64,000 nt of DNA from Fidelibacterota bacterium (GTDB lineage: Bacteria; Fidelibacterota; Marinisomatia; SCGC-AAA003-L08; GCA-2689995), in assembly GCA_014381925.1 (NCBI GenBank), contig JACNKR010000027.1:1991-65990 (forward strand), written 5' to 3'. Both the position numbers and the translations under genes were made by a program. Position 1 is the first letter of the stretch; the number at the start of each line of letters is the position of its first letter. Below, in pieces: positions 14,166 to 32,079 of this stretch. The notes under the pieces were generated by a model, which saw only the letters and a program-made list of their open reading frames with translations, ran no database searches and was not told where the DNA came from.

Positions 14166-17105
14166 TCACTTTACTAATGTTACTTTAGTATTAAGTATTT
14201 CATGTGAAGAGTTTTCTAATTGAATAAAATATATTCCACTTGGACTTTCCTCTGCATTCCATATTACATTGTGGTGTCCTGAATTAAATATCTTATTTGT
14301 GATTTCTTCAATTAATTGACCTTTTATATCAAAAACAGAAATAGATATGCGGTCAACAATTTTTAAATCAAATGGTATATTAATTGTTGGATTAAATGGA
14401 TTTGGATATGCTGAAGATAATGTAAATCCATCAGGTAATGTAGCTAAACCTGAATTAGATAAATACCCACTTGGTGCATCAGTTGTAAATTTAATTGCCA
14501 TATTATTTTGTATTAAAGAAGCACCTGCTCCTGGTGTATTATTAAAACAATATTGTACCCCTTGATTTTGGTCAGGTGATTCAATTCCAATAGTTGAATA
14601 ATTACCATTTTGGTCAACATCATTTATTTCTTTATATTGAAATAAAATTTCACCATCACCTGTAATTGTTGGATTTTGCTGGGTATTAAATAATATCATT
14701 TGAAATGATTCTCTATCACATGCATCAGGGCAATATTCATCATTTTCTCCATTTGCAACATTTTCCCATTGTATTATAAATTGGCCATTATCTTCATCAT
14801 AATAAGATAAAACTTCAAATGGTTCTGTCCCCACATTATCATCTAAATCATCCATAAATGGTGCAATCATTCCAGCTGGCCCCATTGGCATTGGAATAGA
14901 AAAATTCCAAAAGTGAGATATAGTAGTCGGCTCAAAACTTGTCCAACCATTTGAACATACTGTAATTTCATTGTATGTTTTTCCATAATATTGAAAATTA
15001 AAGCCAAGTGGAATTGTCGTTCGTGTATCATCAACTAAATTTAAATCAGTCCCCATTCCACCATGACTTGGGCTAATTTCTACCCAATTATAGGTTGGTG
15101 CTTCCGCATAATTTGTATCCCAATTATCATATCCCCAATACCCATAATTATCTGGTGGAGTTGGGTCAGATTCCAATAATGCAGGCACCATTAAATTTAC
15201 GCGTTTAGATTGAACAACATCTCCATTTTGAGTAATATCTACATCAATAAATAATTGAGTGCCTATTGGAATTGATACATCAATATCTCCAGTTAATATA
15301 CTGTTTAATAATTGATTATCAAATCCATTAATTTCAAAAGTATTAGCAGGATTAGGTGAAGCATTAAAAATACCTTCCGAAAAATTAACGAATTGCAATG
15401 CAAGGTCTGAGTAATTTTGTTGAGATGAATTTGAAATATTTAAACTTAAATCTAGATTATTCCCCGGTGTAACATAATTCATTCCTTCACCTGTTATAAC
15501 ATCAATGTCAAAATATGTAAAAACTTCAGGATTATATGTTTCACCATTATCAGAAGAAAAATTAAGTGTAATTTTTTGTTGGTAAAATTGAGATTTATTT
15601 AAATATAATTCTAATTCAGAGCCCAATTCTACATTTGAAAAATCAATATATAAATTACCATTTTCATTTGATAGTCCTTTCCCAACAAGGTCATCACCCA
15701 CCATTAATGCACCTACAACCATTTCTAACGGATTATTATGTTGGTCCGTAATTGTAAGTGAAATATGAGAATTATTAAGTTCTGCTCCGCTTTCTAGGCT
15801 GGCATTCATTTCTTCAGGTACACCTAACCAAACTGGAATACTTGGATCCCCCATTACACTATACACATGGTGATAAAAATATACAACACCCGGTTTCCCA
15901 TTTGGATCTAATTGGCCTATTTGATCTGGGAATTCAGTGATAAGTGATTGTTTACCCGCATGTAATGCGGGTGCCAATTCATGGACACCATCTTCTAATA
16001 AAGCATCCCACATTGCACCACAAATTACATTATTAAATCGAGTATCTGTATCTAAATCAGAAGGTCCTACCATTGCAGCAGCACCCTTTGGGATATTCAA
16101 TGACCCATACGTAACCATTGCTTCACCATAGCATTTATCTAAACCACTTCCAGAATAATCATTTCCAAAATCACCCGTATTACATACAAAGCTCATGACA
16201 ATTGGCAACATCCAGCCATTTGTTAAATTATTTACATTTTCCCTATGGAAATATGGTTTATGCCATCCATTTGCATCACCCCATCCTCTGTAATTAATAA
16301 TTCCGACACCACTATTCCAACTACTTGCTACGAGAGGATTGCTTTCTCCATTTTGATAATTTCCTGCATGATAAAAAGCTGTATCAATTTGATTATAACC
16401 ATATTCTTCCAATTCATCATATAACCACATTGAAGTCCAAACTGGAGTAACAGGCCATTGAACTGGTGGAACTGGATTACCATCATAAGTTGCATAACTT
16501 CCTGCAACAAGTAATGCTCGATCTAAATAATCAATAAATGGCGTATTTTTGATATATTCTAAAGTAACATATTTGATACTTCTAGAAATTAAATTTGATA
16601 AATCAGCATTGGTTTGAATACTCCATCTTCCCACAAAAATTTCAGGAGAAAAAGCATCATATTCATCGCTATTTTCATCATCTACAAAAAAAGTATATTT
16701 ATAATCCGTTACATCAATATCTTCTTCATTTATGGATGGAATTGTAAATGTCGGAATTTCATAATTCCAGTTCACATCTCCGATAAGTAGAACATATTCT
16801 AACATAGGATTATTTAATTTATAGGCTTCAATTTGATTTCTCAATCCCTCTGCATCCAATCCTAAACCTTCAATAGACATTACTTCTACATCAAATCCTT
16901 GTGTCTTTTTAAAATGAATAAAATCACCAGCAGGATCATTGGATAATCTATCAATTAATTCATCCTGTGGAACTACAATTAAAAATATTCCTCGTCCATA
17001 ATGACTTTCTACATTTCTATTCATCCCTCGCTGTGACAGTGGAACTACATTGGATGATGAAAAAATAAAAGCACTCAATAATAAAATAAATAAAATCTTT
17101 TTCAT
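14166..17105 (-). CDS. gingipain-like (peptidase C25 family) secreted protein with NIDO-like module and T9SS C-terminal sorting domain
   Basis: Signal peptide. INYRGWGDANGW ... MSFVCNTGDF aligns to the RgpB segments NYTGHGSETAW ... DVACVNGDF. C-terminal AYPNPFNPTINIPF ... IYFIQL ... KVTLVK is a T9SS CTD signature. Confidence 0.7.
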   Translation of the reverse strand: MKKILFILLLSAFIFSSSNVVPLSQRGMNRNVESHYGRGIFLIVVPQDELIDRLSNDPAGDFIHFKKTQGFDVEVMSIEGLGLDAEGLRNQIEAYKLNNPMLEYVLLIGDVNWNYEIPTFTIPSINEEDIDVTDYKYTFFVDDENSDEYDAFSPEIFVGRWSIQTNADLSNLISRSIKYVTLEYIKNTPFIDYLDRALLVAGSYATYDGNPVPPVQWPVTPVWTSMWLYDELEEYGYNQIDTAFYHAGNYQNGESNPLVASSWNSGVGIINYRGWGDANGWHKPYFHRENVNNLTNGWMLPIVMSFVCNTGDFGNDYSGSGLDKCYGEAMVTYGSLNIPKGAAAMVGPSDLDTDTRFNNVICGAMWDALLEDGVHELAPALHAGKQSLITEFPDQIGQLDPNGKPGVVYFYHHVYSVMGDPSIPVWLGVPEEMNASLESGAELNNSHISLTITDQHNNPLEMVVGALMVGDDLVGKGLSNENGNLYIDFSNVELGSELELYLNKSQFYQQKITLNFSSDNGETYNPEVFTYFDIDVITGEGMNYVTPGNNLDLSLNISNSSQQNYSDLALQFVNFSEGIFNASPNPANTFEINGFDNQLLNSILTGDIDVSIPIGTQLFIDVDITQNGDVVQSKRVNLMVPALLESDPTPPDNYGYWGYDNWDTNYAEAPTYNWVEISPSHGGMGTDLNLVDDTRTTIPLGFNFQYYGKTYNEITVCSNGWTSFEPTTISHFWNFSIPMPMGPAGMIAPFMDDLDDNVGTEPFEVLSYYDEDNGQFIIQWENVANGENDEYCPDACDRESFQMILFNTQQNPTITGDGEILFQYKEINDVDQNGNYSTIGIESPDQNQGVQYCFNNTPGAGASLIQNNMAIKFTTDAPSGYLSNSGLATLPDGFTLSSAYPNPFNPTINIPFDLKIVDRISISVFDIKGQLIEEITNKIFNSGHHNVIWNAEESPSGIYFIQLENSSHEILNTKVTLVK
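14169..14426 (-). other. T9SS (Por) C-terminal sorting domain
   Basis: YPNPFNP motif and a terminal beta-sandwich pattern ending GIYFIQLENSSHEILNTKVTLVK. Confidence 0.7.
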
Positions 17106-17108
17106 AAA

Positions 17109-31500: not shown

Positions 31501-32079
31501 TCTTGAATATTGAATTGTTTCTGTAATTGTAGATGAGGTTAATGGAGTGATATTAATATCTACATTATTATAAACAACTAATCTTTTTTCTGATGGGTAA
31601 TATGTAAATGGTACAAATTCTATTGAGATAATATCTATATCTCTCATTGTTTGCGGACTTGAAACATTTAAATTATTTATTGGATAACTAGAAATTTGAG
31701 AAAACGAATTATTGATTAATAAACTTCGTGAGTAAACTTGTTTATGCTCGTCATCTTCTATATAAGGTAGTATATTGATATCTTCAATTGTATATGAATC
31801 TATAATTTCATATTGAACATTATATTGAACATTTTTATCAACCATATATAATGACGAAAATGTGGGTAAATCAGGCATTCCAATTTCTAATAATTGTCCT
31901 GTATGTTCAATTTTAATTTTCTGAAAATCTTCATGTGAATCAAATTCAATATCACCTATATTCAAATTTAAAGTTCCACTCCCATCTGACTGACTGACAT
32001 ATTGGAAATGACTAATTGATGAATTTGTTGTAGCAAATATGCCACTGATAAATAAAATAATTGATAATAATTTTTGCAT
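28510..32079 (-). CDS. gingipain-like (peptidase C25 family) secreted protein with propeptide, NIDO-like module and C-terminal dockerin-like module
   Basis: Signal peptide, a C25-propeptide-like N-terminus (GMPDLPTFS ... MRDIDIISIEFVPFTYYP), and a catalytic-domain-like LNYRGYIGVSGF ... TVLTCDTGSF. The C-terminal module is shared with the 14166..17105 protein. Dockerin at the end. Confidence 0.7.
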   Translation of the reverse strand: MQKLLSIILFISGIFATTNSSISHFQYVSQSDGSGTLNLNIGDIEFDSHEDFQKIKIEHTGQLLEIGMPDLPTFSSLYMVDKNVQYNVQYEIIDSYTIEDINILPYIEDDEHKQVYSRSLLINNSFSQISSYPINNLNVSSPQTMRDIDIISIEFVPFTYYPSEKRLVVYNNVDINITPLTSSTITETIQYSRPFVKMYESLIPNFTRTEDMEFQEPAILVIGGGNALTNNNIENLLEWRHKRGYTVYTASTSQTGTSTNSIKNYIQNAYEDFDPKPEFVTLIGDVSGSYSIPAFTENWSGYSGKGDNPYGLLNGDDLYPDVVIGRMSVENSSDIATVVNKIIHYEKASYIAQTGTDWYESAALAGDPSYSGVSTIITNMFINDMLDEYEFENVDTQYNNGWSSFMSNKLNSGVLFLNYRGYIGVSGFGSGNINNLNNGYMLPFATVLTCDTGSFGSSWGGEALSESFFRAGSENIPKGAIASVGTATSGTHTMYNNIVDMGIYWGLFPGNAQTAGEALVHGKLHLIKTYPSNSGNMVNIFTHWNNLMGDPATHLWTDTPRELSVNYNSNLSLGSNFIEVAVNDENNNALKDALVTLLMGNDIIFENRLTDNSGNAFFHIEDIPEGSISVTVTMKNKIPHEGTISVTDAVLPVNVVAENISIYDDGMAFPLTGNNDGLFNPGETVSLAIPIKNFGSSTQTNLTVELTADIDLITFLDGNSIETITSIGANEEIILSYFISLNESAMDGEELGLRIRISDENINEANGYLPVNVVGGRLIVNNYTFITGSTINPGETKNIQIELKNIGNIGVDNISGELIIPGSTFTVADNNISWNLINANSSVLSSNSIEITANENIINGTVIPVQLNLTSSSGYNHSEPLHIQVGTATITDPLGPDQHGYYIYDSGDLGYNLAGIYDWIEIDPDYGGSGTNLNLNNSGDGNPSLQQTTTINLPFDFSFYGIEYSQVTICTNGWITFGDSEMTSFRNYPVPGAGGPSPMIAAFWDDLKTSNNGDVYTFYNPNMDVFIIEWSDMRNDGGNDDQDFQIILYDTLTPTGDGEIKIQYKTVNNTSNYSGATAFHGSYATVGIEDHTSTDGLQYSFNNQYPETALSLADESALFITTRPSTPLTMGDVNQDTVINIVDVILIVNQILNPTSNSLDSIELYIADINGDGVLNVFDIIIIINIILG
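28513..28689 (-). other. dockerin-like duplicated Ca-binding module
   Basis: GDVNQDTVINIVDVILIVNQIL ... ADINGDGVLNVFDIIIIINIILG. Confidence 0.7.

Follow-up and report, generated by a model that had tools for sequence, protein, structure and literature searches.

The 64,000-nucleotide stretch of Fidelibacterota DNA analyzed here (the window) holds a block of exactly ten minus-strand open reading frames (ORFs), running from 32079 down to 14166, that we numbered g1 to g10 in the order of transcription. We propose that this block is probably a single conserved operon for the synthesis of poly-gamma-glutamate (PGA) and its export across the whole envelope, with lineage-specific surface proteins as partners. 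A diderm-type system that makes and exports PGA, as the initial annotation of the window had inferred, is the best reading of the locus because the genes are conserved as a unit, the accessory genes stay linked to the synthase genes, and the predicted outer-membrane barrel occurs only beside PGA genes in the contigs examined. The window has a GC content of 30%, and its closest relatives are metagenome-assembled genomes (MAGs) of the Marinimicrobia (SAR406). The features of the block are as follows.

32080..32363, no strand: presumed promoter region, a 284-bp AT-rich spacer between g1 and a divergent pilin gene
28510..32079, minus strand: g1, a 1189-aa secreted C25-like protein (PF01364 185 bits, PF08126, PF06119, PF00404)
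27323..28483, minus strand: g2, PgsB, an ATP-dependent gamma-glutamyl amide ligase (TIGR04012, PF08245)
26890..27330, minus strand: g3, PgsC, a small polytopic membrane subunit (TIGR04011, PF14102)
25752..26897, minus strand: g4, a "poly-gamma-glutamate system protein" (TIGR04332)
24903..25751, minus strand: g5, a secreted basic protein, modeled by AlphaFold2 (AF2) as two beta-sandwich domains resembling jelly rolls or carbohydrate-binding modules (CBMs)
23857..24903, minus strand: g6, a predicted outer-membrane beta-barrel of 14 strands, preceded by a signal peptide (AF2, Foldseek)
22454..23848, minus strand: g7, an acidic LVIVD-type beta-propeller protein (hhalign to the c19 family)
19335..22448, minus strand: g8, a 1037-aa acidic repeat protein (PF18962 36.3 bits, TIGR04183)
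17109..19334, minus strand: g9, a secreted M14 zinc carboxypeptidase (PF00246 91.9 bits, PF13620, PF00404)
14166..17105, minus strand: g10, a 979-aa C25-like protein (PF01364 169 bits; NIDO-like region; PF18962 40.6 bits)
14112..14137, minus strand: terminator-like hairpin (11-bp stem, then a U-run) 28 nt past the g10 stop

The tight packing and the spacers first reported for these ORFs are borne out exactly by their coordinates. From g1 to g10, the nine junctions measure +26, -8, -8, 0, -1, +8, +5, 0 and +3 nt, so that g3 overlaps its neighbors by 8 nt on each side and the start of g6 overlaps the stop of g5 by 1 nt. The hairpin at 14137..14112 folds with a minimum free energy of -18.7 kcal/mol (z = -4.0), which none of 200 shuffled sequences equaled, and it ranks top among the terminator-like sites in 13500-33000. 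Terminator-like hits total 11 against 6.4 +/- 2.5 expected; the remaining minus-strand hits in the block are weak candidates whose stems measure 5-8 bp and lie within coding sequence. The only strong terminator follows g10, as had been claimed. On the other side, the spacer ahead of g1 is presumed to hold the operon promoter. A scan of the DNA for sigma-70-type promoters gave 135 sites where 138 were expected and is uninformative in DNA of 30% GC.

We scanned all ten proteins with Pfam and NCBIfam (TIGRFAM) profiles, which verified the domain calls made earlier for g1, g2, g3, g8, g9 and g10. The g2 protein scores 386.4 bits against the TIGR04012 equivalog (cutoff 222.7) and has a Mur-ligase fold with the P-loop GSRGKS, and g3 scores 120.5 bits against TIGR04011 (cutoff 96.45) and 116.6 bits against PF14102. 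The next protein, g4, had been described simply as a membrane partner; its membrane nature stands, with transmembrane helices at the N- and C-terminus around a domain of ~310 aa that is probably periplasmic (pI 9.5), but its membership of a named family, TIGR04332 (242.2 bits against a cutoff of 100), had been missed. In the cassette, g4 occupies the place of PgsA/CapA. It has no Pfam match, and searches of the PDB with the single sequence or a 20-sequence profile returned no relative, only noise. The PgsA/CapA domain itself, PF09587, has no match at E <= 0.01 in any of the ten proteins. Since g4 belongs to TIGR04332 and no PgsA/CapA domain is present, the synthase is of an already named, PgsA-less type. 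Francisella CapA is annotated with the same family name as g4 (PMC5362203).

Three further proteins of the block, g5, g6 and g7, have no Pfam or NCBIfam family match above threshold; a match of g5 to LBF_2017 was below threshold and was disregarded. The AF2 model of g5 (pLDDT 87.7, pTM 0.83) finds tandem CBM22 domains, malectin-like ectodomains, reelin repeats and, weakly, BcsB in Foldseek searches. Because the TM scores of these matches are low, they establish the domain type alone. The protein is basic (isoelectric point, pI, 9.3; family median 9.4), and we propose from its model that it may be a periplasmic subunit that handles the polymer. It is also the fastest-diverging gene of the operon, with 85% identity in locus L001, where its neighbors are 94-100% identical, and 39% in L002, where they are 56-86% identical. 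The GC content drops to 24% at 24001-26000 from ~30% elsewhere, and the GC skew flattens across g5 and g6.

The call of an outer-membrane beta-barrel for g6, made from the letters alone, gains support from structure prediction. The AF2 model (pLDDT 79.6, pTM 0.75) has 14 long antiparallel strands in addition to a signal helix. In Foldseek searches it matches CymA best (4d51; E 1.4e-8, TM 0.54-0.59), followed by OmpG, which like CymA has 14 strands, FadL, general porins and the PgaA barrel 4y25. The existence of an outer-membrane component is well supported, and we propose g6 as a candidate exit channel for PGA. An export role for g5 and g6 would fit their predicted folds, their charge and their strict linkage to the synthase genes: g4, g5 and g6 are basic (pI 9.3-9.5), and the exported proteins have a pI near 4.1.

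For g7, the description as an LVIVD/Tsp3-like lipoprotein survives in part. The LVIVD assignment holds, indirectly, through a family of ~350-aa proteins (c19) that fills the same slot in other loci: hhalign relates the g7 family to c19 with a probability of 99.2% (E 1.3e-19), and one c19 member, L006:9686-10759, passes the PF08309 LVIVD cutoff with 20.8 bits against 20.2. The lipoprotein call is uncertain because IQFC, the sequence that leads up to Cys18 of the signal peptide, is an atypical lipobox. The protein is strongly acidic (pI 4.05) and carries three EF-hand-like DxNxNGxxDxxE loops at residues 249-290.

We examined conservation of the neighborhood in two directions. In the forward test, one genome per species was scanned with g4, and the 65 resulting loci were compared by tblastn and ORF clustering. 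The order pgsB-pgsC-g4 is kept in essentially all of them. Members of the g5 family follow g4 in 27 loci and g6 relatives are found in 33 of about 65; g5 and g6 follow g4 in the Marinimicrobia, the Cloacimonadota, the Lentimicrobiaceae/Bacteroidales and several unclassified MAGs. The g5 slot of the Cloacimonadota is filled by a divergent homologue (hhalign 99.1%). Thirteen of the 65 loci have g1-type C25-like genes, which lie upstream of pgsB, after the LVIVD gene or on the opposite strand. Across 1.02 Mb of genome loci, all 18 C25-like genes fall within the PGA gene run and none in its flanks.

In the reverse test, a scan of metagenomes with the g6 alignment retrieved 80 marine contigs at 27-68% identity, and neighbors were counted wherever the flank sufficed. 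Upstream of g6, g4 is present in 29 of 29 cases and pgsB in 19 of 19. Downstream, an LVIVD-type gene follows in 43 of 44, a C25-like gene in 24 of 27, and g8 in all 27 contigs with at least 4 kb of sequence. In the contigs examined, the g6-type barrel was seen only beside PGA genes. The full ten-gene order recurs in many contigs (among them L068, L070, L072, L093, L120, L132, L134, L141 and L151) and persists where g6 is only 27-29% identical; more broadly, relatives with as little as 27-41% amino-acid identity still have the same gene order. Such packing goes beyond chance. We conclude that the ten genes are a conserved unit, in line with the earlier claim of one functional unit, and that many marine contigs of divergent Marinimicrobia preserve their order. 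That the operon is a unit is well supported.

Linkage outlives gene order. The set of C25, g8, M14 and C25 genes accompanies the PGA genes in four or more different arrangements, so that the neighborhood comparison proposed for pgsBC with the barrel, C25 and M14 genes across related genomes found the linkage kept even where the genes are permuted. A C25-like gene comes after the LVIVD gene in L006-8, L012 and L146, the last of which reads pgsB, pgsC, g4, one 353-aa gene, LVIVD, C25, g8, M14, C25. In L148, the LVIVD gene, three C25-like genes, g8, M14 and another C25-like gene precede pgsB, pgsC, g4 and a g5-sized gene. In the Lentimicrobiaceae (L013, L017, L035 and L063), the C25 gene is upstream of pgsB. 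L146, L148 and L151 were found via distant g8 homologues.

Of the two C25-like proteins, g1 comprises a signal peptide, a C25 propeptide, the C25-like domain, Ig-like domains and a NIDO-like domain and has a dockerin at its C-terminus, and g10 ends instead in a type IX secretion system (T9SS) C-terminal domain (CTD; PF18962, TIGR04183). The C25-like domain matches RgpB (1cvr) in sequence with an E of 4e-26. In the 1cvr alignment, both proteins retain Cys244, but a Tyr (g1) or a Trp (g10) stands at the position of the catalytic His211. All 45 non-redundant C25-like domains from PGA loci likewise lack this His and have W, Y, E, F or L at position 211; every one of them has Cys244 and also Arg209, which is Thr in RgpB. 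These 45 domains share no other conserved His, and the S1 residues of RgpB, Glu152 and Asp163, are not conserved in the homologues. We considered whether the loss of His211 reflects a shift in the alignment and rejected this, as the NYRG-x-G and C244 motifs align gap-free throughout with no conserved His nearby.

An exhaustive search of 1.84 billion representatives (E <= 1e-3) extended this picture well beyond the PGA loci. It returned 6986 representative clusters of C25-like relatives, 837 of them at E <= 1e-30, and among the best 150 representatives Arg209 is found in 150, Cys244 in 149 and His211 in 1. This His-less branch (g1 domain 30220-31482; P0141-P0290) is marked by the motif N-Y-R-G-[YWF] and an invariant Cys, and most of its members are 1100-2400 aa long. 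Because g1 and g10 are part of this very large branch, catalysis of the gingipain or PorU type cannot be taken for granted, and because the catalytic His is gone while the Cys is kept, canonical protease or transpeptidase chemistry is doubtful. The earlier idea of a PorU-like transpeptidase is weakened, with His211 replaced in every PGA-linked domain and in 149 of the 150 representatives.

Between the LVIVD gene and the second C25-like gene lie g8 and g9, and in the loci examined g9 always stands between g8 and that second C25-like gene. The g8 protein has 11 WxDxR motifs, probably the blades of a beta-propeller, and a type-A T9SS C-terminal sorting domain. Its wider family comprises at least 596 matches, with a T9SS CTD in some and a dockerin in others as the tail. 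The g9 protein is laid out as an M14 domain, a transthyretin-like domain (CarboxypepD_reg) and a dockerin. Its residues H100, E103, N197, R198, H257 and E334, which make up the HxxE...H zinc ligands, the Asn-Arg pair for the substrate carboxylate and the catalytic Glu, do not vary among 27 homologues. In the PDB it comes closest to carboxypeptidase T, with the N/D/M group also near, and PF05908, the family of PghP-type hydrolases, matches none of the ten window proteins. The active site of g9 is intact, but because the protein is an ordinary M14A/B-like carboxypeptidase and not a PghP-type enzyme, the trimming of PGA suggested earlier is an analogy only.

The tails of these proteins alternate among relatives. 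Although g1 and g9 end in dockerins, their homologues carry T9SS CTDs, and this interchange among g8, g9 and g1 homologues suggests that dockerins and T9SS CTDs may be interchangeable surface-targeting modules in these lineages. Dockerin type I tails are found on the non-cellulosomal arylsulfotransferase (12593-14083) as well as on g1 and g9. We detected no cohesin among the proteins scanned and identified no T9SS genes in the annotated parts of the 64-kb window.

Loci with TIGR04332-type proteins in other lineages differ in their surroundings. Those of the Myxococcota and Spirochaetes have neither g5 nor g6 and have other neighbors in their place. In the Myxococcota/Polyangiales (L023-L050 and L065; for example, L038:4345-11934), genes for a TetR regulator, an NAD/2Fe-2S oxidoreductase, a fatty-acid hydroxylase and a 3beta-hydroxysteroid dehydrogenase (3beta-HSD) lie upstream and one for a DUF4136 lipoprotein downstream. 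These identities led us to reject the conserved Myxococcota neighbors (TetR, oxidoreductase, fatty-acid hydroxylase, 3beta-HSD and DUF4136 lipoprotein) as export components. In the Cloacimonadota (L014, L019, L036 and L053-L060), a small ORF of 94-114 aa follows the g6 homologue and has no Pfam match in its L014 member; a conserved 137-aa ORF sits either just before pgsB or just after the small ORF. The large neighbors of pgsB in this phylum were considered as C25-like proteins and rejected, being a BNR/T9SS protein, RpoC, a sortilin-like protein and a tricorn-like protein.

One such locus bears on the product. In a Chlorobiaceae MAG (L026), the gene that immediately follows the g5 homologue encodes a PghP-type poly-gamma-glutamate hydrolase (L026:12049-12693; PF05908, 144 bits); the same search found none in any of the other loci. 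The presence of this hydrolase within a pgsB-pgsC-TIGR04332 locus supports PGA as the product of this type of system. It also encourages the analogy for g9, since a true PghP-type hydrolase stands in an equivalent locus. The gene after the hydrolase encodes an 840-aa TonB-dependent-receptor-like OMP_b-brl_3 protein that replaces the g6-type barrel.

These observations can be assembled into a working mechanism. PgsB would polymerize glutamate at the inner membrane together with PgsC and g4, with g4 replacing PgsA. The basic tandem beta-sandwich protein g5 would then handle the polyanion in the periplasm, and the 14-strand barrel of g6 would let it cross the outer membrane, with the LVIVD propeller of g7 and its putative Ca-binding loops as an additional partner in the envelope. 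The four large acidic proteins, g1, g8, g9 and g10, may reach the cell surface by way of their T9SS or dockerin tails and act there on the PGA layer or together with it. Among them, g9 could plausibly trim polymer ends, and g1 and g10 would bind, organize or anchor the polymer, which we consider likelier than gingipain-style cleavage because the catalytic His is absent. The analysis shows which families the genes belong to, the folds predicted for their products and the conservation of the neighborhood; we infer that the polymer is PGA, that it passes by way of g5 and g6, and what g1 and g7 to g10 do, the roles of the accessory proteins from linkage only.

Several observations weigh against reading the block as a PGA export operon. 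The PGA loci of the Cloacimonadota, Myxococcota and Spirochaetes have no C25, g8 or M14 genes, and the g8 and C25-like families far outnumber PGA loci. Both C25-like domains of the window are without the catalytic His, and g9 has no specific similarity to known gamma-glutamyl hydrolases. The fold matches of g5 have TM scores of 0.2-0.3, the models of both g5 and g6 derive from shallow alignments of 9-10 sequences, and with 14 strands g6 is narrower than the 16-18-strand exopolysaccharide porins PgaA, BcsC and AlgE. Coverage is uneven as well, since the retrieval patterns of the reverse test were Marinimicrobia-derived and it therefore covers mainly that group. Finally, no TIGR04332-type system has a demonstrated polymer; to our knowledge, Francisella capBCA, the characterized relative by annotation, has never been shown to make PGA.

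The alternative that survives best divides the block into two unrelated neighbors that are co-transcribed for convenience, a PGA module of g2 to g7 and a secreted module of g1 and g8 to g10 that serves protein or peptide degradation or adhesion. It fits the occurrence of the PGA core without C25, g8 or M14 genes in the three phyla just named, and it suits the resemblance of g9 to ordinary carboxypeptidases T, N and D and the sheer size of the C25-like family. Distant g8-like proteins also exist away from PGA genes, in locus L149 and in two Margulisiibacteriota-type contigs of common gene order (L147:8672-11389 and L150:10001-12706), where they are 25-27% identical, have no T9SS tail and lie between SMC and NAGPA-domain genes. 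Nevertheless, we consider the two-module explanation unlikely. The accessory set stays with pgsBC-g4 through all the gene orders described above and at 30-40% identity, C25-like genes flank pgsB in the Lentimicrobiaceae too, and the genome loci held not one C25-like gene outside the PGA gene run.

Even less probable, in our judgment, is that PgsB, PgsC and the TIGR04332 protein make some other gamma-glutamyl product, such as a short oligo-glutamate, a glutamylated lipid, or a glutamylated envelope or protein component, and that g5 to g7 serve that product. The replacement of PgsA by a protein with no detectable relative of known structure leaves room for this, as does the want of a demonstrated polymer in the family. 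On the other hand, PgsB and PgsC lie well above their equivalog cutoffs, the homologous Chlorobiaceae locus encodes a hydrolase for PGA, and a dedicated predicted outer-membrane barrel with a basic periplasmic protein suits the export of a soluble polyanion. We likewise give little credence to the notion that the C25-like proteins are active clan-CD cysteine enzymes, like PorU or CapD, that cleave PGA or transpeptidate PGA or T9SS cargo onto the surface: the C25 fold and Cys244 are kept, the invariant Arg209 suggests a conserved functional site, the linkage to PGA genes is tight and CapD-type anchoring exists in Bacillus anthracis, but the His of the clan-CD His/Cys dyad is missing in every linked homologue, no other family-wide His takes its place and the S1 residues are lost.

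A bolder elaboration of the PGA export operon, confined to the Marinimicrobia and some relatives, deserves mention even though we regard it as distinctly improbable. PGA might be the anionic surface polymer that holds proteins with T9SS or dockerin tails, much as A-lipopolysaccharide (A-LPS) does in Porphyromonas. The His-less Arg209/Cys244 branch might then be a new class of enzymes that cleave or transfer gamma-glutamyl polymers, a PGA "sortase" or depolymerase with non-canonical catalysis, and g4, g5 and g6 might form a novel trans-envelope channel for the export of a polyamide.

Comparison with known systems places the core of the operon and sets off its extensions. The closest counterpart is the TIGR04332-type cassette, which by annotation includes capBCA of Francisella tularensis (FTT_0805-0807) and has the same three proteins in the same order in a diderm host. 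The three-gene PgsA-less cassette is a known, curated family; with Francisella CapA already in it by annotation, a PgsA-less diderm PGA cassette is therefore not new in itself. To this cassette the window adds the predicted periplasmic beta-sandwich protein, outer-membrane barrel and LVIVD propeller, and the Marinimicrobia further add the four giant surface proteins. The classical systems, PgsBCA(E) of Bacillus subtilis and CapBCADE of B. anthracis, also pair a PgsB ligase with PgsC and an extracytoplasmic third subunit. However, their hosts are monoderms that need no outer-membrane step, and the window has no PgsA/CapA (PF09587), no CapD of the gamma-glutamyltransferase type and no PgdS of the NlpC/P60 type. 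In both bacilli an enzyme that processes the polymer is encoded beside the synthase, B. subtilis having pgdS and B. anthracis capD, and the placement of the PghP-type hydrolase in the Chlorobiaceae locus is comparable.

In overall architecture, the block recalls the exopolysaccharide systems PgaABCD, BcsABC and Alg8/44/K/E, each of which combines an inner-membrane synthase, a periplasmic polymer handler and an operon-encoded outer-membrane beta-barrel, the last being predicted here. The resemblance extends to the match of the g6 model with the PgaA barrel and, weakly, of the g5 model with BcsB. These systems have no sequence homology to that of the window, whose product would be a polyamide rather than a polysaccharide, whose barrel has 14 strands instead of 16-18, and which has an LVIVD propeller instead of a tetratricopeptide repeat (TPR) scaffold. 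None of the ten proteins matches a TPR family; the propeller of g7 and the tandem beta-sandwich of g5 are found instead. Among surface proteins, g1 and g10 share with the C25 proteins RgpB, Kgp and PorU a propeptide domain, an Ig-like domain after the catalytic domain, Cys244 and, in g10, the T9SS CTD, but they differ in the replaced His211, the invariant Arg209, their much larger size and their NIDO-like and dockerin modules. The g9 protein, an M14-fold zinc carboxypeptidase in a PGA locus, invites comparison with PghP (PF05908) and the M14D cytosolic carboxypeptidases, as phage PghP has an M14-like fold. Unlike PghP, it belongs to PF00246 and is closest to carboxypeptidase T in the PDB.

Our literature searches found Fusobacterium nucleatum as the sole PGA-producing Gram-negative, no account of PGA export across an outer membrane or of Marinimicrobia with PGA, and no description of the g5 to g7 extension or of the four giant surface proteins. 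Because no such description was found, the extension and the ten-gene Marinimicrobia operon appear to be new, and the predicted route looks like the first outer-membrane export route to be described for PGA.

Upstream of the block, on the plus strand (32364-47090), lies a divergent type IV pilus or type II secretion system (T2SS)-like cluster that contains pilins with N-methyl motifs, two T2SSE ATPases, PilM, a secretin and T2SSF. Pilin and ATPase genes also adjoin g1 in L001-L003, and in L151 genes for T2SSF and a prepilin peptidase lie upstream on the same strand. Downstream, the arylsulfotransferase-dockerin gene (12593-14083, plus strand) is convergent with the operon. A transfer-messenger RNA gene (RF00023, 90 bits) occupies positions 1-255 on the minus strand, truncated at the window edge, and dnaA is found at 55292-56662 on the plus strand, which places the window probably near the chromosomal replication origin.

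The biology of PGA is known almost wholly from the monoderms Bacillus and Staphylococcus. A module of pgsB, pgsC, TIGR04332, beta-sandwich and barrel genes that spans several diderm phyla provides a concrete, testable export route. Few uncultured lineages are as abundant in the dark ocean as SAR406/Marinimicrobia, and they keep the ten-gene operon across deep divergence. If they do build a PGA surface layer, it would bear on metal and Ca binding, particle attachment, and resistance to phages and grazers, as well as on where dissolved organic matter rich in glutamate, possibly D-Glu, comes from. Linkage to PGA genes also provides a first functional lead for the His-less C25-like family, with its thousands of clusters, and for the g8 repeat family.

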